From Candidatus Binatia bacterium (GTDB lineage: Bacteria > Desulfobacterota > Binatia > UBA12015), in NCBI GenBank assembly GCA_029248525.1, contig JAQWJE010000049.1, forward strand, positions 549,836 through 613,835: 64,000 bases of DNA. Reading direction: 5' to 3'. Made by a program: the position numbers and the translations under genes. The stretch's first letter is position 1. Every line of letters starts with the position of its first letter. Under the pieces are notes generated by a model. The model did not search any database. It was not told where the DNA came from and saw only the letters and a list, made by a program, of their open reading frames with translations. Shown piece after piece: positions 3,743 through 41,241 of the stretch.

Positions 3743-4926
3743 TCGACAGGCTCCACACGGACACGCCGCAGGACGGTGCCTTCGCGACGTTCCACCGTGA
3801 ATCGGAGTTGCGCCATTTCGACCGTCTCGGCGACGCGCGGTATTCGACCAAGTTCTGCCATCAGCAGCCCGCCTACCGTGCTGGCCGAGCCATCGGATTC
3901 AATCGGCCTGTCGATCAATTCCGCCAACTCCTGAATCGGGAGCCGGCCAGAGACGAGGAGGTTGTGCCCGGATCGGATGTAGTCGGGGATTTCCTGATCG
4001 TCACCTTCGTCGCGAATCTCGCCGAAGAGTTCTTCGAGAAGATCCTCCATTGTAACCAGCCCGATCAGACTCCCAAGATCATCGAAGACCATTGCGAGAT
4101 GAGTTTTCCGGCGCTTGAATTCGCGAAAGGCCGTATCGACTTGAGTATCCGGTGCCACGATTTCGACTGGGTGCAAAAATGATTCGAGATCGAAATCATT
4201 TTCCAGCTTTCGTCCGAGTAAATCCTTTACATAGAGGATCCCTGCGATCTCTTCGTCATTGTCGCGACGGATCGGGATCCGTGCAAAACGCGCTTCGTCG
4301 ACTTTGGCGATCAAATCATCTGCCGAGATATCGATGGGCAGCGAGAAGATATCGACCCGCGGTGTCATGACTTCATGGACGGAGCGGCTACCGAAGGACC
4401 GGACATTGGCGAGAAGATCGCGCTCGTCGGGCTCAAGCTCGTGTGCCCAGGCAACGGTTTCTTCGTCCTCGGCATAGTTCCCGTCTTCACCGGTGGTTTG
4501 GCTGCGCGCAGCGTCTTGTCCCATGACGCGGAGGGTGCGGCTTAGCGGGAGGAGCAATCCGACCAGTGCCCAAATGCGCCCCTGCATCGGTGGCGGACGT
4601 TTTTGAGATCGCTTTCGGGTGATCATCGATGAGGTCCAGGCGAGAAATACCAGAATAGCGGCACCCCAGGCTGTGCCGGGGGTGAGGAGCAACCCGGCCG
4701 CGACAGCCGCTGCCAGAATCGTGTCGCGGCAAAGCCAGAGAGCCGTCAGGGCCGCGCGAGGAAAGACGCGGGCGTCGCGCACGGCGGCCGGATCTTCGCG
4801 CTCCGGGGTTCGGCGAATATTCAGAAGAAGCGCGCTCTCGGCGCGTGCGACCTGTGCGGCTGAAAATACGACCAGGCCTGCGGTTGCTACCTGCGTCAGC
4901 GGTAGAATCCAGAGGGAGAGGCTCAT
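3739..4926 (-). CDS. Hemolysin-family / DUF21-CBS-CorC_HlyC protein (paralog)
   Basis: Same architecture as the gene above. The start is chosen at [12 protein letters not shown] (ATG complement 4924-4926), which overlaps the thiL stop as ATGA. The longer ORF start at 5055 overlaps thiL. Confidence 0.8.
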   Translation of the reverse strand: MSLSLWILPLTQVATAGLVVFSAAQVARAESALLLNIRRTPEREDPAAVRDARVFPRAALTALWLCRDTILAAAVAAGLLLTPGTAWGAAILVFLAWTSSMITRKRSQKRPPPMQGRIWALVGLLLPLSRTLRVMGQDAARSQTTGEDGNYAEDEETVAWAHELEPDERDLLANVRSFGSRSVHEVMTPRVDIFSLPIDISADDLIAKVDEARFARIPIRRDNDEEIAGILYVKDLLGRKLENDFDLESFLHPVEIVAPDTQVDTAFREFKRRKTHLAMVFDDLGSLIGLVTMEDLLEELFGEIRDEGDDQEIPDYIRSGHNLLVSGRLPIQELAELIDRPIESDGSASTVGGLLMAELGRIPRVAETVEMAQLRFTVERREGTVLRRVRVEPVE

Positions 4927-15646: not shown

Positions 15647-18430
15647 TCAGAGTTCGGGAAGGACCGCCTCAAGTGCGGCGATGACGGCCTCCTGTGTGAA
15701 GGGTTTGGTGAGATAACCGCTTGCCCCTGATTGTTGCGCCAATTGGCGGTGTTTTTCACTGCCGCGTGAACTGCAGATAATGACGGGAATTTCCTTGAGC
15801 TGAGGATCGTTTCGGACCGCATGAAGGAGCTCGTATCCATGCATTCGCGGCATCTCCAGATCGGTAATCAGAACACGGTATTGCCCACTGCGCAGCCGGT
15901 CGAGAGCCTCGCGGCCGTCGACAGCGGTGTCCCCGGAAACGCCGGCGCCTTCCAGAAAATGATGCGCGAGTTTACGGACACTGATCGAATCTTCCGCCCA
16001 CAGGACGGCTGCTTCGGAGATTTCGGTTCGTTTCTCGAGTGGACGGTCCGCACCCGAGGGGTGTTCCCGCCAAGCGGCATGAAGTCGGCTGGCGTCGAGG
16101 GCAAAGACGACATTTCCATCCCCTCGCAGCGTCGCACTGCTGATGAACGGATGATTATGGAAAAGAGGGCCGAGCGGCCGAATTACCGCTTCCCGCTGCG
16201 ACTCGATCTTCTCCACGAGCAGAGCGACCCGAGTGTCGCCACAGCGCAGGATCACGGCGGTTTGTGGGTCGGCACCGGGCGGGCATCCCAGGAGACGGTG
16301 CAGCGGCAGTGCCGGAAGCCAATCGTTTTCGAAGGCAACGAGATAGCGTTCTTCCTGCTCCTGCAGATCCTCGGGATTGATATTGATCACGGTTTCGACC
16401 GGGCCCTGTGTCAGGGCGATGGTCTCCGTCCCCGCCCGCAACAGGAGGATTTGCTCAATCATCGAGGTCAGGGGGATATGAATTCGAATTTCGGTGCCCT
16501 GCTCGCGCTCGGCTTGAATCGTGACCGAACCTCTAAGTCGGGCAACCTCGGATGCGACGACATCCATGCCAACGCCGCGACCCGATACCGTGTCGGCTGT
16601 TTCCTGCGTCGAGAATCCCGGCTCGAAGATCAGGCCGGAGAGGTAATCAGGGTCGGACGAGCGGCTCTCGTCGAGGATTTTACGCTCTCGGGCGCGGTTC
16701 CGGATCGAATTGAAATCCAGACCGGCGCCGTCATCCTGAACACGAATCTCGACATGGCCGTGGCTTTGTTTCGCATCCAGTGTGATTCGCCCTGCAGCCG
16801 ATTTGCCCTGCTGGCGACGTTCCTCAGGCCGCTGAATTCCGTGGGCGACGGCGTTGCGGACGAGGTGGAGCAAGGGGCCGTATAGAGACTCGATCAGAGA
16901 TCGATCGAGTTGAACGTCCCCCCCATGGCATTCAAAAAGGACTTCTTTTCCGGACTGACGTGCCGCATCTCTTGCGGCATGGGCGAGTCGGCGGTGCAAG
17001 GAGTCCAGCGAAACCAGACGCATATCGCTCACAGTGCGTTGCAGGCTGGAGGTCACTTTGGAGATCTGACGCGACTCGTCGCCAAGAGAGTCAAGAAGCA
17101 GCCCCACCTGTTCGACGACCTCCGAGGTATCCGATGCGAGTTCGACCAGAGTACGGGTCAGGACGTTGAAGTCGTCATATTTATCAAATTCGAGATCCGT
17201 AAAAGCATCGAGGTGTGTAGGCCCGCGGGCCTCGCCTGTGGGTGTTGGTGTTGCCGCGGGTTTTGGCTGATGGAATTCAAAACTTCGAAACCCCTCAATC
17301 GTTTCCCCCAGTCGCATCCGGTCGACGCTGAGCTTCTCCCGCATTTCCTGAATGGCCGACATTCCATCGTCGAGTTGTGTCCGGCTGACCACCAATTCGC
17401 TGATGCGGCTCATTAGAAGATCCAGTCGGCTGCTGTGCACCCGAATCACGCCACCATCGGTATCTTTGGCCGGGGCGATGGGGGGCGGTCGTTGCGGCTG
17501 GGAAGCCGACTCCCCGGCCGTTCGAAGCGTGTTCTCCGCAGGGGGGGGCTGCGCGGTCATCTTCGCCAGGGCCGTCTCGACAAGATCTTTCGGATTCCGC
17601 AGGATCAGACTTTGGTGCTGTTGTTGTCTGGATTCGGCAATCAACCCGGCGGCCGAGTCGAGGATCTGCAGAAGACAATCGTGCAGATCCGTGGCGGGGA
17701 CGGATTTGCGCTTTTCCAGAACTTCTTCGAGCAGCGTCTCGCCGGCCTCCATCTGGGCGACAATCCCGGCTAGCTCCACGGCCGCCGCCGCACCTTTCAG
17801 CGTATGGAATTGGCGAAAAAGAGTCCGCAAAGGAGCGGGGTCACCGGGCTCCGCTTCCAGAAGAACCATTGCATTTTCCGCAGCCTCGAGCGCGGCATCT
17901 GCGTCGAGGCGGAAGGCGTCGAGCATCTCCCTGTCAAAGGCTTCCCTTTCGGGGTCGGGAGGCGCGGCAGGTGCGGTCTCGGTTGGCCCGTCGGATTCGC
18001 CTTGCCGAGCTGCCGTCGCCGCTATTTCGAGGGCTTCCTCGGGTGAGGGGAGACCGGCTTCAGCGCATAATTTGCACAGGCTGGGACTGATTTCAGAGAA
18101 AAAGGCATGGCTCAGAGGTAGTTCCGGACCCTGTTCCTCCGGGCCTTCGAATGCGGTCTGCAAATTGCGGCCGAGTTCACTCAAGTCCTCCATGCCGACA
18201 GTTGCCGCACTTCCCTTCACCGTATGGAATTGACTCCCAAGGGCAGCACAGGCTTCTTCCTGCTGGCCCGGATCGGCAAGGGCCGCGAGATATTGCTCAA
18301 GGCTCTGAAGGATTTCGGGGAGCTCTTCGCGAAATGTTTCTCGCAGGTCCTCAGCGAGAGAGCTCTCAAAGCTGTCCAGTTCCGGCGATATGGGCAGGGA
18401 TTTACTATGCGTTTCGTTTTCGGAATCCAT
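15647..18430 (-). CDS. CheA-CheY hybrid histidine kinase (two Hpt domains, HATPase, CheW-like domain, C-terminal receiver)
   Basis: Two Hpt motifs (FHTVKGSAATV and FHTLKGAAAAV), HATPase_c (VQDDGAGLD...GRGVGMDV), a CheW-like domain and a REC domain (VLITDLEMPRMHGYEL...YLTKPF). Confidence 0.9.
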   Translation of the reverse strand: MDSENETHSKSLPISPELDSFESSLAEDLRETFREELPEILQSLEQYLAALADPGQQEEACAALGSQFHTVKGSAATVGMEDLSELGRNLQTAFEGPEEQGPELPLSHAFFSEISPSLCKLCAEAGLPSPEEALEIAATAARQGESDGPTETAPAAPPDPEREAFDREMLDAFRLDADAALEAAENAMVLLEAEPGDPAPLRTLFRQFHTLKGAAAAVELAGIVAQMEAGETLLEEVLEKRKSVPATDLHDCLLQILDSAAGLIAESRQQQHQSLILRNPKDLVETALAKMTAQPPPAENTLRTAGESASQPQRPPPIAPAKDTDGGVIRVHSSRLDLLMSRISELVVSRTQLDDGMSAIQEMREKLSVDRMRLGETIEGFRSFEFHQPKPAATPTPTGEARGPTHLDAFTDLEFDKYDDFNVLTRTLVELASDTSEVVEQVGLLLDSLGDESRQISKVTSSLQRTVSDMRLVSLDSLHRRLAHAARDAARQSGKEVLFECHGGDVQLDRSLIESLYGPLLHLVRNAVAHGIQRPEERRQQGKSAAGRITLDAKQSHGHVEIRVQDDGAGLDFNSIRNRARERKILDESRSSDPDYLSGLIFEPGFSTQETADTVSGRGVGMDVVASEVARLRGSVTIQAEREQGTEIRIHIPLTSMIEQILLLRAGTETIALTQGPVETVININPEDLQEQEERYLVAFENDWLPALPLHRLLGCPPGADPQTAVILRCGDTRVALLVEKIESQREAVIRPLGPLFHNHPFISSATLRGDGNVVFALDASRLHAAWREHPSGADRPLEKRTEISEAAVLWAEDSISVRKLAHHFLEGAGVSGDTAVDGREALDRLRSGQYRVLITDLEMPRMHGYELLHAVRNDPQLKEIPVIICSSRGSEKHRQLAQQSGASGYLTKPFTQEAVIAALEAVLPEL

Positions 18431-18452
18431 GCAAAGCCCCTTTCGAGTCCGT

Positions 18453-19877
18453 TCAGACAGAAGGTGCGACCGAGTTTGGTTGCTGGATCGTCAGGCATAA
18501 TTCGAGAAGCGCCTCGCTCCGATGACGAGTCGTTTCCTCGGCGACTTCCAGCTTGCGGGCGACGTTTTCGATTTGTTCGAGGGCAGATTCAATCTGGTCG
18601 GCCGCGGCGCATTGTGACGTCGCCGTATGGGTGACCGCATCGACAGCGGCATGCGCGCTTTCGGCTTCCTGTCGCAGCTTCTGGATCGAGCGCTCGGCCG
18701 CCGCCGCTGCAGCCGAGTGCATTTCAATCCGCTCGCCTTGCCGGTCCATTCCACCGACGGCTTCGCCAATATCATTCTGAATTCCGCGAATCAGCCGATC
18801 GACTTCCTTGGCTGCCTGAGAGGCTTTCTCCGCAAGCTTGCGCACCTCCTCGGCGACGACGGTAAAACCGTGGCCCTGCTCTCCGGCCCTCGAGGCTTCG
18901 ATGGCTGCGTTCAGCGCGAGCATATCGGTCTGTGCCGACATTTTGGAGATGGTGCCGGTGATCGCGGCTATCTGCATGGAACGCTCACCCAGCCGTTTGA
19001 TCTTGACGGTCGCAGCCCGGGTTTCCCGCTGGAGTCCCTCCATGCCCGCATTGAGGTCGGAGATAGCGGACTGGCTCTGCTTGCCGGCCTGCTCGGCGAG
19101 GCTGCTGGAGTCGATGGCCTCCTGGCATAAACTCGTGAGTCGCTGGTTCTGGACCTTGAGTTGATCGGCATCCTCCGAGGTGGCGGCACAGACCTCCCTT
19201 TGGGCCAGAGCATCGCCGTGCGCAGCATGGGCCGCCAGCCGAACCTGCTCAGCCGAATGTCCGATCCCCTGTGATATATTCGCGAGGTCCTCATCGCGAG
19301 CACCGAGCTCCTCGAGGGTCTGGTTGAGCCGTAGCCCCAGCTCTGCAAAATCTCCCTTGAGATCGCATCGAGAGTCCCGTTCACCGGCCTGATGCCGAGA
19401 CAGGGTGTTTGTCATGGATTTGATGGCTCTCTCGACAACGATTCGATGCTCGACGAGGTGCTGGTGCTGGAGATCCCAGCTGTCCAGAATACGATTGACC
19501 GCCCGACAGGATTCAGCTGCAGGCCCGGAGCCCTCGGCGGGTAGTCGGGTTTCATAATGTCCGCGTTGCATCTTGCGCAGAGCGGCCGGTAGATCCCGCA
19601 GGCCTCCCGCGAAGGACTGCCAGAGGTGTCGGCCGAGAACCCAGCCGAAAACGCTAGCCAGGATTGCCGAGATCCCCGTCGCCAAACTCAGGGAGAGGAC
19701 GCCCGGCTCCATCAGAAACCCTTCGAGCACGAGGAAGGCCAATATCCCCTGCATGCCTGCAATGATCATGGCCAGGAGGGCGATTTTCCCCGCGCCTTCT
19801 CGACTCCAATCGTGATCCTTGCGTGAGGCAGACGCGACTCCTGGAGCCAGGGGGGTTAATTTCTCTGCAGTGGCCAT
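18453..19877 (-). CDS. Methyl-accepting chemotaxis protein: two closely spaced TM helices, no periplasmic domain, HAMP, MCP signalling domain
   Basis: MCP highly conserved domain ([38 protein letters not shown]). The N-terminus has two TM segments separated by only a few residues. Confidence 0.9.
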
Positions 19878-20359
19878 GGCTCACCTCTCTCGTCTGTCGT
19901 GATTGCCGCAAAGTCGGCCCGAATAACCTCCGCCACCTCGCGGAGAAAAAGCTGTCCGTCCAAAATAATGGTCTGGCTGTCGCCTCGGCGCACCACACCC
20001 CGAATCAGGTGCTGTGGCATCCCGAGTTCGTGAGGGGGTAGGGAGTGAATCTCCCAGGGCGCGAAATGTTGTACGGCAAGAACTTCGTCGACACCGGCTG
20101 CGACTCGCAGGTCGCCTTCGGCGAGAACGATCAGGCTCCGGGGACATTCGTCGCCCGAAGGTTGGCGGTGGAGGAAAGTCGCCAGTGAGATCAGTGGCAG
20201 GATTTCTCCACGCAGATTGAAGGCACCCAGAAGTCCGGCGGGCGCACGTGGAATTTCCGTATACCGCCGTCGCTCGACGACTTCGCCTGCGACCTCGGTA
20301 GAGAACGCGAATTGGGTCTGGTTGCTGCGAAAGAGGCAATGGTCGCCGTGCGCATTCAT
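19856..20359 (-). CDS. cheW: Chemotaxis coupling protein CheW
   Basis: 167-aa CheW-like domain ([19 protein letters not shown]...[20 protein letters not shown]). Confidence 0.85.
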
Positions 20360-21456
20360 AGCTCGATGACCTCGGGCAGACCCGCTTCCGTCGGAGGAGA
20401 GGCTGTTCCTGTCAGGGCGGGAATGGTGTTCAGCGACTCATGGCAGGGCAGATCGGCATCGGCGGGATCCTCGTTCTCGTTGGATCCCAGACGACAGAGG
20501 CAACTGCGTTCCGGAAGTCTCTGCAGGGCCCGGGTCAGCGTTTCATCCGGAGGTCCGTCGAGAAGAAGGACTTCCGGTTGCAGAATCGCGGCGAGGTGGG
20601 GCAGGAGTTCGAAATGGCGGTAGAGGAAAATCCATCTGGATTTTTCGGCCTCGGAGATCTCGCTCTCGAGGGCCTCTGTCACGGATGCTGCCGAGGTCGA
20701 GACCAGAATGCGAGAGGGAACCACTGGAACTCGAAGATATTGTCCCTGCGTGCGGGCGAGGAGCAGGCTCGCCTGACAAAGCGCGGTATGCGCCGCGACG
20801 AGTTCGGCCCCGGGATCGATAATTTGCCCTTGGGGGTTCAGGTGGATGTTCCGAGGGATCCTCTCACGCCGCCGGCGAAGTGTCAGGACTTCAGAGGTCG
20901 CCTTGTCGAGCAGTTCGAGAATGGACTGGTTATCGGTTGTGACGCTTCGTTGGCTGGCCAGCGAGGCGGTCTCCTCCAGCGATTGGAGGAGGTGGCGAAA
21001 CCCGACTTCGACGGACTGCAATCCGCCGCGTTGTGGCGCCGATCTTCCCGGCGCAGGGCGATCGACCCGAGGAGGTGCTGTGTGGCGATTTTCTGCCAAT
21101 GCATGGGAGACAACACTCAGAACAACCTTGGGCTTGAAAGGCTTCGTGATGTAGCTGACGACATTCTGCGCATCCTCGTACGCCTGTCGAATCGAGGTTC
21201 CCTTGGCGGATACCAGCACAACAGGTGTGGATTGCGTGAGCGGAATTTCTTCCAATGCCGCGCAGACGTCGGGCCCCCTCATATCGGGCAGGACGTAGTC
21301 GAGAAGGATGAGCTGCGGATCGAAATTGGCCGCAGCCTCGAGCGCATCTTTCCCGGTAGCCGCGAGTTGAAGATCGTAGCCCTCGGGTTTGAGGATCATC
21401 TCCAACGCGCGTCGAATTGTCAGTGAATCGTCGACGATCAGAATACGAGCGCTCAT
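20356..21456 (-). CDS. Response regulator: N-terminal CheY-like receiver fused to a ~240-aa C-terminal domain of unknown function
   Basis: The REC domain is complete (ILIVDDS...LILLDYVLPDM...YITKPF). The C-terminal half has no recognisable motif. Its ATG overlaps the upstream stop and its stop overlaps the cheW start. Confidence 0.8.
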   Translation of the reverse strand: MSARILIVDDSLTIRRALEMILKPEGYDLQLAATGKDALEAAANFDPQLILLDYVLPDMRGPDVCAALEEIPLTQSTPVVLVSAKGTSIRQAYEDAQNVVSYITKPFKPKVVLSVVSHALAENRHTAPPRVDRPAPGRSAPQRGGLQSVEVGFRHLLQSLEETASLASQRSVTTDNQSILELLDKATSEVLTLRRRRERIPRNIHLNPQGQIIDPGAELVAAHTALCQASLLLARTQGQYLRVPVVPSRILVSTSAASVTEALESEISEAEKSRWIFLYRHFELLPHLAAILQPEVLLLDGPPDETLTRALQRLPERSCLCRLGSNENEDPADADLPCHESLNTIPALTGTASPPTEAGLPEVIEL

Positions 21457-36661: not shown

Positions 36662-37885
36662 ATGCCTGTTTTTGCATACGAAGGCCGGACGGCCAGTGGC
36701 AAGATTCTGCGCGGCGATATGGAAGCCGACTCCCGGGAGGCGGTGATTTCCCGACTGCGCTCCCAACGCATTCAACCGATTACCAAGAAGATCAAGGAAA
36801 AGGGCAAAGGCCTTTCTCGCGAAATTAATCTTCCAACGATTGGAAACCCGGTCTCGCAGCAGGAAGTGGTGGTTTTCACCCGTCAGCTGACCACAATGGT
36901 CGAGTCGGGGATGCCGCTTGTCCAGACGCTCGACATTCTCGGGTTGCAGAGCGAGAACAAGCATTTCAAGAAAGAAATTCTCGCGGTCAAGGAATCTGTC
37001 GAATCCGGAGCGACATTCTCCGAAGCATTGCACCGCTTTCCCGGCACCTGGGACGAGCTCTATACGAATATGGTTCAGGCGGGCGAGATTGGCGGGATCC
37101 TCGATACGATTCTGTCCCGGCTCTCTGTCTATATGGAGAAATCGCTCTCTCTCAAGCGTAAAATCAAAGGAGCGATGATCTATCCGGTCACCATTCTATC
37201 GGTCGCCGTTGCTGTGACCATGGTGCTTCTGGTGTTCGTGATCCCGGTTTTCGGGGAACTCTTCGGTAGTTTCGGGCAGGCGCTTCCCTTGCCGACGCAG
37301 TTGGTCATCAACCTCTCGGATTTTGTGATTCAGTACGTGCATTGGATGCTTCTGAGTTTCGCGTTGGTGGTCTTCGGTATACGGCAGGCGGCCCGGACGG
37401 AACAGGGACGAACGATTCTGGATCGTCTGCTGTTGAAAATGCCGGTGCTCGGTTCGTTGTTGCTCAAGGCCTCGGTAGCCCGATTTTCGAGAACTCTCGG
37501 AACGCTGGTCTCCTCGGGCGTCCCGATTCTGGATGCGCTGACGATCACGGCGAAAACCGCTGGCAACAAGGTGGTTGAAAAAGCCGGCTTTTCCGTTCGG
37601 GAAAGTATTAGCCAGGGGCATACCATGCTCGAGCCCTTGCTGGCCTCGGGCGTTTTTCCCCCGATGGTCTGTCAGATGATCGGTGCCGGTGAGATGACCG
37701 GGTCGATCGATCAGATGCTGCAGAAAGTCGCTGATTTCTACGAAGAGGAAGTCGATAACGCGGTGGCCAACCTGACGGCATTGATGGAGCCTCTGGTGAT
37801 CGTGGTACTGGGTGTGATCATCGGCGGATTGGTGGTCTCGATGTATCTTCCGATCTTTCAGATGGGCTCGGTCCTCGGCGCCTGA
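36662..37885 (+). CDS. pilC: Type IV pilus platform protein PilC (GspF family)
   Basis: 407 aa with two T2SSF repeats (LTTMVESGMPLVQTL...; FSRTLGTLVSSGVPILDAL). Confidence 0.9.
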   Translation: MPVFAYEGRTASGKILRGDMEADSREAVISRLRSQRIQPITKKIKEKGKGLSREINLPTIGNPVSQQEVVVFTRQLTTMVESGMPLVQTLDILGLQSENKHFKKEILAVKESVESGATFSEALHRFPGTWDELYTNMVQAGEIGGILDTILSRLSVYMEKSLSLKRKIKGAMIYPVTILSVAVAVTMVLLVFVIPVFGELFGSFGQALPLPTQLVINLSDFVIQYVHWMLLSFALVVFGIRQAARTEQGRTILDRLLLKMPVLGSLLLKASVARFSRTLGTLVSSGVPILDALTITAKTAGNKVVEKAGFSVRESISQGHTMLEPLLASGVFPPMVCQMIGAGEMTGSIDQMLQKVADFYEEEVDNAVANLTALMEPLVIVVLGVIIGGLVVSMYLPIFQMGSVLGA

Positions 37886-39600
37886 TGGACCGAGAGGGGA
37901 TGACGGCGGCATCGCCCGCTCGCGGGATGCGTATCCTGCTCCTCGCTCGACTCCTGATTGTCGCTACCTTTGTCGTCGCTATTCTGAGCTGGCTCTTTGC
38001 CACTAGTGCGGTGTTCTTCGCCGGTGAGTTCCGCCCGGGAATGATCCGCGCGATCGCGGTGGACGGGTTGGCGCTGGCGGCCCTGGCAGTTGCTTCCGGG
38101 TGGTTGGCCCAAAAGCTCGAAGGTGCCCAGCAGGAACTTTTCCGCACGAATGCGGCCATGGATCGTTTGAGTGCGGTGCATGCCGCCTTGGCGACTGGTC
38201 TCGAGTGCGGCGTAGTTGTTCTGGATGGAGTTGGTCAGATCCGGTCGGCCAATCCGGCCGCACAAAGGATTCTCGGTTGTCCGACACAGGAACTGCTGGG
38301 TCGCCGACTGACTTCGTTGGTCCCGCTCCTGCTGCGAGGGCAGCCGGATGCCGGCGGGTTTCAGGACTGCGAGCAGCGATTGCCTTCGGGGCAATCGCGC
38401 AAGCTGCACATCCGCCGTGTGCCGCTCGACAATTCGGCAATTCGCTCTGGCGGCGAGGTTGTCGTTCTGCAGGAACTTTCAGCCGAGCCGATTGTTGCAG
38501 GGGCAGCCGCGCTGTCGCTACCTTTGTCCGAAAATAACCTGCAGGCCCAAAAGGATTTTCTGGTCGGCGACGGGAGCGGGATGCAGGAGGTGCGACGGTT
38601 GATCGGTAAAGTCGCGGCGGCACCGGCTACCGTGTTGATCACTGGGGAGAGCGGCACGGGCAAGGAGCTGGTGGCTCAGGCGATTCATGCCGCGAGTGAA
38701 CGAGCCTCCGGCCCCTTTGTCGTGGTGAATTGTGGAGCGATTCCCGAAGGCTTGATGGAGAGCGAATTGTTTGGCCATATCCGGGGTGCCTTCACGGGAG
38801 CGGAGAGCCACCGGACGGGCCTGTTTCGGCAGGCGCAGGGCGGGACCCTGTTTCTCGACGAGGTTGGGGAATTGACACAAGCGCTTCAGGTGCGACTGCT
38901 GCGTGTCCTGCAGGAAAAGGTGGTGACACCGGTCGGCGGCAAAAATCCTGTATCGCTGGATGTGCGCGTGTTGGCGGCAACGAATCGATCGCTCGAGGCT
39001 GAAGTTCGCGCAGAGAGATTTCGGCAGGACCTCTTTTACAGACTCGCTGTGATCACGATTGAAATTCCGCCGCTGCGCGAAAGGATGGAGGATCTGCCGG
39101 CGCTTCTCGAACATTTCCTGCAGCAAGCAGTGCTACGTCACCGCCGAGCCATTCGTGGAATCGATCGGGAGGCGATGCAATGCCTGCAGGGGGGCCGCTA
39201 CCCGGGGAACGTGCGGGAACTGAAAAATATCGTCGAATACGCGGTGACTCTCGCCGAGTCGGAGGAGTTGACGCGAGAGGACCTTCCCGAGGCGTTGCGC
39301 AAAATAGCAGGAACCCCGGACCCCGAAGAAATTGCCCCGCACGCAACCCTGGTAGCCGAGGTTCCGGTCGGAGGCGGAGATCAGACGCGACAGGATTTGC
39401 TCGATTTTGCGTCCCGGATCTCCGAGAGTTTGGATGAACGACTGGCACGGACCGAACGAGATCTGATTCTCGAGGCGCTGGATCGCGCGTCTGGAGTCAA
39501 AAAGCACGCGGCCGCGCTGCTTGGCGTGAATTATCGGTCCTTGCGTCACCGCCTCCAGAAGCACGGAATTGCGGGCCGCTCGGGCCGGGCGCGCTTTTGA
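37885..39600 (+). CDS. Membrane-anchored PAS-sensor sigma-54-dependent transcriptional activator (no receiver domain), Fis-type HTH
   Basis: N-terminal TM helices plus a PAS-like block (GVVVLDGVGQIRSANPAAQRILG). The sigma-54 AAA+ core follows (VLITGESGTGKELVAQAIH...GAFTGA...ESELFGH), then a C-terminal HTH (AAALLGVNYRSLRHRL). Its ATG overlaps the pilC stop. Confidence 0.85.
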   Translation: MDREGMTAASPARGMRILLLARLLIVATFVVAILSWLFATSAVFFAGEFRPGMIRAIAVDGLALAALAVASGWLAQKLEGAQQELFRTNAAMDRLSAVHAALATGLECGVVVLDGVGQIRSANPAAQRILGCPTQELLGRRLTSLVPLLLRGQPDAGGFQDCEQRLPSGQSRKLHIRRVPLDNSAIRSGGEVVVLQELSAEPIVAGAAALSLPLSENNLQAQKDFLVGDGSGMQEVRRLIGKVAAAPATVLITGESGTGKELVAQAIHAASERASGPFVVVNCGAIPEGLMESELFGHIRGAFTGAESHRTGLFRQAQGGTLFLDEVGELTQALQVRLLRVLQEKVVTPVGGKNPVSLDVRVLAATNRSLEAEVRAERFRQDLFYRLAVITIEIPPLRERMEDLPALLEHFLQQAVLRHRRAIRGIDREAMQCLQGGRYPGNVRELKNIVEYAVTLAESEELTREDLPEALRKIAGTPDPEEIAPHATLVAEVPVGGGDQTRQDLLDFASRISESLDERLARTERDLILEALDRASGVKKHAAALLGVNYRSLRHRLQKHGIAGRSGRARF

Positions 39601-39815
39601 GAATGGCGCGGCTCTCCCGCCGCGATTGTTGCCGCCCCAGCATGCGCACGTTTTGTCAGCGGTGTTCGGATTTTGCCACCGCGTGTACGAAAACGTCGAA
39701 ATCCTGCCGCTCGGGCAGCGTCAGAAACATGACGTTTCGGACAAATCCCGTCCATGGAAGTAAATAAGTCAATAATAACAAGGACTTACCTGAATTACTC
39801 CACGGGCGCTCCACG

Positions 39816-39831
39816 TGGCACCGACCTTGCA
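39816..39831 (+). promoter_or_regulatory. Sigma-54 (-24/-12) promoter of pilA: TGGCAC-cgacc-TTGCA
   Basis: An exact match to the TGGCAC-N5-TTGCW consensus lies 97 nt upstream of the pilA ATG. The imperfect inverted repeat GTCAGAAAC-N5-GTTTCGGAC (39720-39742) about 85 bp further upstream is a candidate UAS. Confidence 0.7.
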
Positions 39832-39927
39832 ACGGGAGGGATTGGAAGCCGCGCGCCGATTCGCGTCGGCAAAATAGACCGCGGTGGTAGCGCAACGGCG
39901 CTCGGTACCGACACTGGAGGATGGCAA

Positions 39928-40314
39928 ATGGAAATGATCAAGAATCTGAAGGAGCGAGACGAAAAGGGCTTTACCCTGATTGAATTGCTCGTCGTTGTAG
40001 CAATCATCGGAATTTTGGCGGCGATCGCGATTCCGCAGTTCTCGGCCTACCGGGAGCAGGGTTTCGACGCTCAGGCCTCTTCGCATCTGCGTAATATTGC
40101 GCTGGCACAGGAAGCCTATTTCGCGCAGGAAGCCACCTATGCAGCGGATGTCGCGTCACTGGCCCCGGCCGTGCAGACGGATTCGGATATTCCGGTCACC
40201 GTGGCTCTCAAGACCGGTGGTTTCACGTTGCAGGCGGCCCACGCCAGCGGCGGTAAAACTTTCAACTGGGACTCCACGCTGGGTGGTTTGCAAGCCGATA
40301 GCGGCGGCGAATAG
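39928..40314 (+). CDS. pilA: Type IVa major pilin PilA
   Basis: MEMIKNLKERDEKG | FTLIELLVVVAIIGILAAIAIPQF is the class III signal peptide, with the conserved Glu at +5. There is GGAGG 7 nt upstream. 128 aa. Confidence 0.85.
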   Translation: MEMIKNLKERDEKGFTLIELLVVVAIIGILAAIAIPQFSAYREQGFDAQASSHLRNIALAQEAYFAQEATYAADVASLAPAVQTDSDIPVTVALKTGGFTLQAAHASGGKTFNWDSTLGGLQADSGGE

Positions 40315-40339
40315 ATTTCATCTCAGCGAGCTTTCGAGA

Positions 40340-40379
40340 AATGGCGCCACTCCTCCGGGGGTGGCGCCATTCTTGTTTC
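40340..40379 (+). terminator. Rho-independent terminator after pilA
   Basis: Perfect 10-bp inverted repeat AATGGCGCCA...TGGCGCCATT with a 12-nt loop, followed by CTTGTTTC. It lies 25 nt after the pilA stop. Confidence 0.7.
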
Positions 40380-40440
40380 AGGCTCTTTTTCAGAGGCCGC
40401 TCCGAGGGATCGCTGGCCAGTAGGGGCGGGGAATGCGACC

Positions 40441-41241
40441 ATGACATCCGTGGATTTGGAAACTTTCATGCTTCTTCTGGTCTTGGTGACGGGGGCGATG
40501 GTTGGCAGTTTTTTGAATGTCGTCATCCATCGTGTCCCCCGTGGGGAAAGCGTTGTTACCCCGCGATCACGTTGCCCGAGCTGTCAGCACGAAATTTCCT
40601 GGTGGGAAAATATTCCTGTGGTCTCGTGGCTTCTGCTCCGAGGGCGTTGCCGGGGCTGTGGGGAAGCAATTTCTTTCCGCTACGTTCTGGTGGAGATCCT
40701 GGCTGCCCTTCTCGCGGGCCTGTTGTTTTTCAGATTTGGCCCGACGGTAATTTTTCTATTCTTTACGTATTTTGCCCTCAATCTGCTCGCGCTGACCTAT
40801 ATTGACCTCGACCATCAATTATTGCCTGACCGCTTGACCTTGAGTGGCTTGGGGGTCGGGTTGCTGGGAGCGCCGTTCGTTTTACCCGGGGAGCCCGGCC
40901 CGGCATTTCTTTTCGCCCTGCAGGGGGCGCTGGTGGGCGGAGGACTGCTTTACGGGGTTGCCTGGGCCTACGAGAAAATGACCGGGCGACAGGGCATGGG
41001 CGGCGGCGATATCAAATTTCTCGCCATGATCGGGGCTTTTCTCGGCTGGGAGGGCGCGCTGCTTTCGCTCTTTCTCGGGTCGCTGGCGGGGTCGCTGATC
41101 GGCTTGGCGCTCATGCTCGGCCGCGGCGCGAATCGTCGATTGGCATTGCCGTTTGGTCCTTTTCTGGCGATTGGTGCTCTGGTCACCCTCCTGTGGGGGC
41201 CGCAGATCCTGCACTGGTATTTCGGCTCGCTGCGGCTCTGA
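40441..41241 (+). CDS. pilD: Prepilin peptidase / N-methyltransferase PilD (peptidase A24)
   Basis: N-terminal tetracysteine (CPSCQHEISWWENIPVVSWLLLRGRCRGC), multi-TM body and the catalytic-Asp region. Confidence 0.9.
   Translation: MTSVDLETFMLLLVLVTGAMVGSFLNVVIHRVPRGESVVTPRSRCPSCQHEISWWENIPVVSWLLLRGRCRGCGEAISFRYVLVEILAALLAGLLFFRFGPTVIFLFFTYFALNLLALTYIDLDHQLLPDRLTLSGLGVGLLGAPFVLPGEPGPAFLFALQGALVGGGLLYGVAWAYEKMTGRQGMGGGDIKFLAMIGAFLGWEGALLSLFLGSLAGSLIGLALMLGRGANRRLALPFGPFLAIGALVTLLWGPQILHWYFGSLRL

Follow-up and report, generated by a model that had tools for sequence, protein, structure and literature searches.

The 64,000-nucleotide stretch of Candidatus Binatia contig JAQWJE010000049.1 analysed here (64 kb, hereafter the window) carries a type IV pilus locus with the gene order aroE, ABC-type ATPase, pilB, pilT, pilC, EBP, pilA, pilD. 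The EBP gene codes for a sigma-54 enhancer-binding protein (EBP) of 571 aa, in which a PilS-type sensor and a PilR-type output appear to be joined in one membrane-anchored polypeptide. An identical protein is deposited as 'sigma 54-interacting transcriptional regulator' from a Candidatus Binatia metagenome-assembled genome (MAG). It has no curated name because it scores under the NCBIfam cut-off of all named EBP equivalogs (NifA, NtrC, AtoC and others). The gene and the parts of its product, with their transmembrane (TM) helices and helix-turn-helix (HTH), are as follows.

37885–39600, + strand: one-component membrane-anchored sigma-54 EBP, PilS sensor fused to PilR output, 571 codons
37915–38109, + strand: TM hairpin, TM1 aa 11–46 and TM2 aa 51–75 (hydropathy, AlphaFold2 helices, alignment)
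37948–37950, + strand: codon of Arg22 in TM1 (conservation, hhalign)
38110–38478, + strand: cytoplasmic signalling helix aa 76–104, continuous with TM2, and PAS domain aa 105–198 (Pfam, AlphaFold2)
38479–38562, + strand: PAS-AAA+ linker aa 199–226, variable and of low confidence (low AlphaFold2 pLDDT, orthologue identity)
38563–39312, + strand: sigma-54 AAA+ core and lid aa 227–476 (Pfam, PDB matches)
38644–38667, + strand: Walker A motif GESGTGKE (sequence)
38785–38802, + strand: GAFTGA motif (sequence)
aa 477–500: disordered linker just N-terminal of the HTH (AlphaFold2)
39385–39564, + strand: Fis-type HTH DNA-binding domain aa 501–560 (Pfam HTH_8, AlphaFold2)

Domain organization and predicted structure of the EBP

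The sequence-only reading of this DNA had described TM helices, a PAS-like sensor, a sigma-54 AAA+ core with GAFTGA and ESELFGH motifs and a Fis-type HTH within 571 aa, without receiver or kinase domain. Pfam, hydropathy and AlphaFold2 agree on this organization. Pfam places a PAS domain at about aa 102–203 (PAS/PAS_4/PAS_8), Sigma54_activat (PF00158) at aa 227–393 with an E-value of 3e-69, AAA_lid_14 at aa 398–476 and HTH_8 at aa 520–560 (E 1.6e-10). Response_reg, HisKA and HATPase_c have no Pfam match in the protein, and 6TM_PilS (PF25323) has none at E ≤ 0.01. The Walker A motif, the Walker B DE (aa 325–326), ESELFGH (aa 292–298) and GAFTGA (aa 301–306) are all intact. Two hydrophobic segments, aa 12–49 and 51–75, reach Kyte-Doolittle 19-residue means of up to 2.69 and 1.83, respectively.

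The AlphaFold2 model, computed with 60 homologues, has a mean pLDDT of 83. A first helix (11–46) is connected by a four-residue loop to a second one (51–104), which continues unbroken into a five-stranded PAS domain (105–198). A low-confidence coil (199–230) then leads to the AAA+ module (231–475), followed by a disordered segment (476–500) and the HTH (501–560). No receiver-type alpha/beta fold is present in the model. A hidden or degenerate receiver between PAS and AAA+, which was looked for as a refutation of the sequence-only reading, is rejected: Response_reg has no Pfam match there and the gap of about 25 residues has no space for such a domain. Matches to the solved structures of ZraR, NtrC1, FleQ and PspF all start at aa 217–229, and residues 1–216 have no PDB match at the sequence level. 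Since the EBP has neither a DHp/CA kinase core nor a receiver, control by phosphotransfer should be impossible. Judging from these missing domains, its control is probably phosphorylation-independent, as had been proposed.

The start codon of the EBP shares bases with the stop codon of pilC (TGATG), so that a longer N-terminus is impossible in this frame. A second in-frame ATG lies at 37900 and corresponds to Met6; P0135, a protein of the same 90% cluster, has 566 aa, the length expected from a Met6 start, and the agreement is one of length only. Translation may thus start at the ATG at 37885 or at that at 37900, and the domain layout is the same either way.

Relationship to PilS and PilR

The proposal that the EBP replaces a PilS/PilR pair is supported by a related locus, L016, in which the order is pilB-pilT-pilC-pilS-pilR and the pair stands in the slot of the fused gene (related loci are designated by L numbers). 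Both halves of the EBP are homologous to such a pair. Searched as a profile, the sensor half (6TM + PAS) matches PilS-type kinases with E-values of 1e-46 to 1e-31 over 83–96% of its length; these kinases are proteins of 555–587 aa with the organization 6TM_PilS-PAS-HisKA-HATPase_c. Residues 63–147 of the EBP align with the TM6-helix-PAS part of P0123, the PilS kinase of L016, and residues 226–568 (343 aa) are 51% identical to the L016 PilR, starting from just past its receiver. The kinase-like sensor half, the PilR-like output and the shared slot are therefore best explained if the gene was formed by joining pilS and pilR, the receiver and the DHp/CA core being lost.

A family of fused regulators

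About 100 of the 120 best homologues are longer proteins (650–780 aa) that contain 6TM_PilS, PAS, Sigma54_activat and HTH_8 without Response_reg. They are 40–49% identical to the window EBP over 86–96% of the query, and PF25323 ('PilS-like transmembrane domain') matches relatives of this length with E-values of 5e-9 to 2e-19. Compared with the long forms, the window EBP has an internal deletion of about 125 aa, which leaves TM1 and the last helix. Its sequence thus makes it a shortened representative of a large 6TM_PilS + PAS + AAA+ + HTH family, known only from uncultured MAGs. Database names of members are 'PilR' (many of them in JGI) or 'sigma 54-interacting regulator'. The close relatives of the window EBP comprise four proteins of 564–571 aa at 73–79% identity and one of 598 aa at 58%.

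The order pilC-EBP-pilA is found in 20/20 loci examined, with the pilin mature N-terminus FTLIELLVVVAIIGILAAIAIPQF. Contigs of the close relatives retain pilT-pilC-EBP-pilA-pilD and those of the long forms (aroE)-pilB-pilT-pilC-EBP-pilA; L004, L005, L007 and L018–L027 share the pilC-EBP-pilA context. The motif TGGCA[C/T]-N5-TTGC precedes pilA in 18/18 loci scanned for a promoter, and in all loci this target promoter lies ~170–1450 bp from the EBP stop codon. In 60 aligned members, F303 and T304 of GAFTGA are invariant and the remaining positions are invariant or conserved in at least 90%.

A scan of GTDB species representatives with a narrow sensor alignment returned about ten true members, together with unrelated PAS matches. 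All of these members come from uncultured MAGs named Binatia, Deltaproteobacteria or Thermodesulfobacteriota, and the window's own species was not recovered; NCBI additionally names members from Methylomirabilota. Two loci differ in detail. At about 3200–3400 of L027 the Walker A motif GESGTGKE reads GESGTVTE, with loss of the lysine, and this copy may be inactive or reflect an assembly error. In L008 (3603–5485, Methylomirabilota) the sigma-54 promoter precedes a pilin ORF missed by the gene call; about 1 kb further on there is another pilin gene, so that tandem pilins lie after the fused regulator.

Selective constraint

Nonsynonymous to synonymous substitution ratios (dN/dS) were determined for the three closest orthologues, L010, L011 and L014. 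Synonymous divergence (dS) between these and the window is 1.7–2.5, i.e. saturated, and the ratios are accordingly rough. The membrane/helix region has values of 0.06–0.23 and PAS of 0.10–0.17, whereas AAA+ is at about 0.05 and the HTH at about 0.08; against the more distant L009 the ratios are higher. In the closest orthologue TM1 is as conserved as the AAA+ core. The linkers aa 201–226 and 477–500 evolve almost freely: the PAS-AAA+ linker retains 27–42% identity in the three closest orthologues and 12% in L009, with raised dN/dS. From these sequence comparisons, all folded domains of the EBP are under purifying selection.

These values bear on the idea that the EBP is left over, without function, from a two-component system that has decayed. 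A precedent exists in Rsp of Neisseria gonorrhoeae, known from work of 2000 that is cited in PMC6528607 and PMC10269533. For the EBP, the low dN/dS of each folded domain (about 0.04–0.23) excludes a decaying gene although the ratios are rough. The catalytic motifs are all intact, and the family keeps its synteny, promoter and upstream sites across a wide distribution. We therefore reject this explanation, the chance of its being correct appearing minimal.

The conserved arginine of TM1 and the input of the sensor

The sensor half of the family was compared by hhalign with PilS of P. aeruginosa, Kingella and Neisseria, the profile of PilS N-termini being built from the supplement of PMC6528607. 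The two align with a probability of 98.2% (E 5e-14) over 214 columns, and Arg22 of the window EBP (Arg20 of P0086) pairs with Arg24 of P. aeruginosa PilS. A plain MAFFT alignment sets the family arginine and PilS Arg24 two columns apart; the pairing is settled by the profile-profile alignment together with the identical R-x5-R spacing. Arg22 is conserved in at least 90% of 60 family members, short forms included. P. aeruginosa PilS is a sensor of membrane-bound pilin, as stated in PMC6528607 (citing Kilmury & Burrows 2016), where Arg24 of PilS and Glu5 and Pro22 of pilin are also described as important for the PilS-PilA interaction and autoregulation. The mature N-terminus of the window PilA, FTLIELLVVVAIIGILAAIAIPQF, has both Glu5 and Pro22.

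The same activator might act on the same target with another input, if the PAS domain or the hairpin senses a small ligand, redox or membrane state and the hairpin is perhaps mainly an anchor. PAS domains are general ligand sensors, that of the EBP is under purifying selection in the three closest orthologues, and four of the six PilS helices are gone in the window sub-clade. Moreover, the signal of Neisseria Nps stayed undefined despite tests (PMC6528607). However, the retention of the Arg24 equivalent even in the short forms, the conservation of TM1 at the level of the AAA+ core in the closest orthologue and the presence of Glu5 and Pro22 in the window pilin argue against a non-pilin input, which we regard as unlikely but still to be taken seriously.

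The pilA promoter and its upstream sequences

39651–39708, unstranded: three more conserved upstream blocks, TTTTGTCAGCGGTGTTCGG, ATTTTGCCACC and TACGAAAACGTCGAAATCCTGCC, candidate additional enhancer sites (intergenic alignment)
39720–39742, unstranded: palindrome GTCAGAAAC-ATGAC-GTTTCGGAC, candidate primary enhancer (upstream activating sequence)
39743–39799, unstranded: AT-rich spacer, candidate bending site (G+C 27–35%)
39816–39831, + strand: sigma-54 promoter TGGCAC-N5-TTGCA (GG-N10-GC), TGGCACCGACCTTGCA (motif scan)
39842–39927, + strand: pilA leader, highly conserved (intergenic alignment)
39928–40314, + strand: pilA, major type IV pilin (Pfam N_methyl; NCBIfam PilA_Myxo/GFxxxE)
40340–40381, + strand: strong intrinsic terminator behind pilA, 14-bp stem followed by a T-rich tail

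The sequence-only reading had also placed a sigma-54 promoter, a palindrome as candidate enhancer site and an AT-rich tract in front of pilA, and all three sequence features stood up to analysis. The promoter is located 216 bp past the end of the EBP gene; pilA starts 97 nt behind it, with the ATG at 39928. TGGCACCGACCTTGCA is the sole exact TGGCAC-N5-TTGCW in the 64 kb, with 0.03 expected. Transcription of pilA would start near 39842, and no sigma-70-like promoter was found in 37500–40500. The centre of the palindrome lies ~86 bp upstream of the -24 element. It is present as a single copy in the window and is conserved at 23/23, 22/23 and 22/23 positions in L010, L011 and L014, respectively, the L014 version having perfect dyad symmetry. 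As synonymous sites between these loci are saturated (dS 1.7–2.5), the conservation of the non-coding blocks reflects selection. In L014 an inserted GNAT acetyltransferase gene (4384–4836, opposite strand) separates the EBP stop codon from the upstream sites, which remain with the promoter beside pilA at unchanged spacing.

Between the palindrome and the promoter, G+C falls to 27–35% (39740–39799) compared with 55–72% in the flanks. This spacer is poorly conserved across the orthologous loci, except for AACAAG; being AT-rich, it is possibly bent. A site for integration host factor (IHF) was considered and rejected: the one 12/13 consensus match (39776–39788) is of a kind that occurs at chance frequency in the window.

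A single enhancer motif for the whole family was sought by k-mer and motif analysis of the 230 nt upstream of each promoter and likewise rejected, as the dyads differ by sub-clade and share no single consensus. In two of the longer 6TM relatives (L023 and L025) the dyad GTGACG-N9-CGTCAC lies upstream of the sigma-54 promoter; the HTH is nearly invariant nonetheless. The window palindrome also holds CGTCA-N6-TGACG, and from these sequences the actual recognition element may be a CGTCA/TGACG core.

The leader of pilA carries the inverted repeat GCCGA-N6-TCGGC (39855–39870) and a Shine-Dalgarno sequence, GGAGGA (39916–39921). Its conservation exceeds that of the upstream sites, and this holds even for L009 with its 58% identity. 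An RNA element in the leader was rejected as unsupported, since its minimum free energy does not improve on that of shuffled sequences (z +1.06), covariation is almost absent and Rfam has no match. The leader might instead act as an operator, or be bound by a protein or a small RNA. Gene callers (L001–L003) predict a pilA of 186 aa from the ATG at 39754, which spans the sigma-54 promoter and the leader. The true start is at 39928, as indicated by the conserved GGAGGA, the ATG at this position and calls of 128–129 aa in orthologues. The predicted PilA has a leader peptide of 14 aa, MEMIKNLKERDEKG, with cleavage before F.

The arrangement of promoter and regulator gene also bears on whether a canonical PilS/PilR pair encoded elsewhere controls pilA, the EBP being accessory or serving other sigma-54 promoters. 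The view of the genome is confined to 64 kb and myxobacteria carry more than one PilSR-like pair, both of which count for a separate pair. However, the fused gene occupies the pilS-pilR slot of every related locus, beside a conserved sigma-54 pilA promoter and its sites. No additional EBP or PilS-like kinase is encoded within the window, and the palindrome occurs nowhere else in it; receiver domains occur in the window solely in two products of a chemosensory cluster, a hybrid of CheA type and a protein of 366 aa. Control of pilA by a separate pair thus appears very improbable.

Proposed mechanism

In our view the EBP is probably a phosphorelay-free, membrane-anchored sigma-54 activator that arose from a pilS-pilR fusion, drives pilA and likely senses membrane pilin. 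DNA binding, activation, membrane topology and the identity and sign of the signal are what we infer for the EBP, and the scheme would be as follows. The EBP would be translated as the last cistron of pilB-pilT-pilC and form a helical hairpin in the inner membrane, with its two ends facing the cytoplasm. Its two modules, the sensor of PilS (helices, signalling helix and PAS) and the output of PilR (AAA+ and HTH), would be connected by a flexible linker. The HTH would bind the palindrome 39720–39742, and probably also the blocks 39651–39708, beside its own gene, and the AT-rich spacer would permit DNA looping. With ATP and its GAFTGA loops, the AAA+ ring could then turn the closed complex of sigma-54 at 39816–39831 into an open one, giving a monocistronic pilA mRNA that would end at the terminator at 40340. 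The closeness of the promoter to the EBP stop codon and translation right after the membrane protein PilC would fit cis action at the membrane.

The sensor module would set the activity of the EBP directly, without phosphotransfer. By homology to PilS, its input would be the unassembled pilin pool in the inner membrane, sensed via Arg22 of TM1 and Glu5 of pilin, and the outcome would be pilin homeostasis. The signal might cross the PAS-AAA+ linker through control of oligomerisation or through docking of PAS on the ATPase.

Several points weigh against this scheme. The window EBP has kept two of the six PilS helices and has no 6TM_PilS match; because four helices are gone, pilin sensing may be altered or lost in its sub-clade. 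The disordered and variable PAS-AAA+ linker makes the signal route from membrane to ATPase hard to picture. A hexamer with 12 membrane helices must act on a promoter held at the membrane, and we know of no described precedent for membrane-tethered working among sigma-54 activators. Finally, the upstream motif varies between sub-clades.

The difficulty of geometry would disappear if the membrane form were latent and a protease cut the PAS-AAA+ linker, freeing a soluble AAA+-HTH activator. Such proteolytic release occurs in other membrane-tethered transcription factors, and the disordered, freely evolving linker aa 199–226 would suit it. However, neither a conserved protease gene nor a recognisable cleavage motif was found at the related loci, and the promoter always lies ~170–1450 bp from the EBP stop codon, as a tethered, cis-acting factor needs. 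We thus consider proteolytic release improbable and favour the tethered activator.

A stronger claim can be made tentatively for the whole family: that it represents the first membrane-integral sigma-54 activator, which reads pilin in the bilayer with PilS helices and the arginine and opens the pilA promoter while tethered. We hold this possible, with some doubt. If true, the sigma-54 open complex would form at the membrane, on DNA adjoining the regulator's gene, and the 2-TM form of the window would be the minimal pilin-sensing element of PilS.

Neighbouring genes

36662–37885, + strand: pilC, T2SSF platform protein (Pfam T2SSF, E 6e-66)
40441–41241, + strand: pilD, prepilin peptidase (Pfam A24_N_bact, Peptidase_A24)

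Past pilD and a TPR protein, the segment 42056–51093 carries several small ORFs without Pfam match, together with genes for a GspH-like protein, a minor pilin (N_methyl) and a PilY1-domain protein of 1107 aa. This minor-pilin/PilY1 block has the same orientation as the pil genes. The chemosensory cluster mentioned above (15650–21456, - strand) codes for the CheA-type hybrid (Hpt-HATPase_c-CheW-REC, 927 aa), a methyl-accepting chemotaxis protein (474 aa) and the 366-aa receiver protein; it may represent a Pil-Chp/Frz-like pathway for pilus control. In the relative L004, Response_reg and CheX genes are found upstream of pilB.

Comparison with known systems

Type IV pilin genes have PilS-PilR as their textbook regulator, and the usual picture of a sigma-54 activator is that of a soluble, DNA-looping hexamer. 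The PilS-PilR systems of P. aeruginosa, Myxococcus xanthus, Geobacter sulfurreducens, Kingella and commensal Neisseria (Nps/Npa) share with the EBP the slot, a homologous sensor and output, and the target, a sigma-54 pilA promoter (PMC2725144, PMC6528607). In Geobacter, PilR activates an RpoN-dependent pilA promoter directly downstream of pilR (PMC2725144). However, PilS-PilR consists of two proteins with a kinase core and a receiver, whereas the EBP is one membrane-integral polypeptide without either, and the 6TM domain of PilS is reduced to a 2-TM hairpin in the window sub-clade. With the sensor wired straight to the sigma-54 ATPase, the kinase/phosphatase step is removed, and pilin sensing would become readable with one protein and one promoter. 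This bears on the way in which PilS senses the pilin pool with its membrane domain, the 2-TM variant narrowing down the helices that are needed.

In the literature, with incomplete coverage of subscription journals, we found no membrane-anchored sigma-54 activator and no functional PilS-PilR fusion. The only precedent found for a PilS-PilR fusion is Rsp of Neisseria gonorrhoeae (an nps-npa fusion), likewise a single ORF joining PilS-like and PilR-like genes (PMC6528607, PMC10269533). Both papers describe Rsp as a modified remnant without an apparent part in transcribing pilE, a gene that is RpoD-dependent in pathogenic Neisseria (PMC6528607). Unlike Rsp, the present family is conserved and subject to purifying selection, and an intact sigma-54 pilA promoter accompanies it.

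Soluble one-component EBPs with PAS, GAF or V4R domains (NifA, TyrR, DmpR/XylR and PAS-type proteins of Desulfovibrio; PMC4641369) also have a sensor fused to AAA+-HTH and work without phosphorylation, and their target promoter adjoins the regulator gene, as observed here. However, they are cytoplasmic, whereas the window EBP has membrane helices inherited from a histidine-kinase sensor. ToxR, TcpP and CadC are inner-membrane one-component DNA-binding activators too (PMC10269533). Their fold, topology and mechanism are unrelated to those of the window EBP, with its N-terminal membrane sensor and AAA+ sigma-54 output. ToxR-type proteins are not built as an N-terminal membrane sensor with an AAA+ motor. 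With 12 to 36 helices anchoring it, an activator of the present kind has to operate at the membrane, its target probably being the promoter next to its own gene.

These comparisons support the view that the PilS-PilR circuit has collapsed into one membrane-integral sigma-54 activator, a domain combination already visible in the databases. The change from a two-component to a working one-component system would extend across several uncultured lineages, namely Binatia, Methylomirabilota and MAGs labelled Deltaproteobacteria or Thermodesulfobacteriota.

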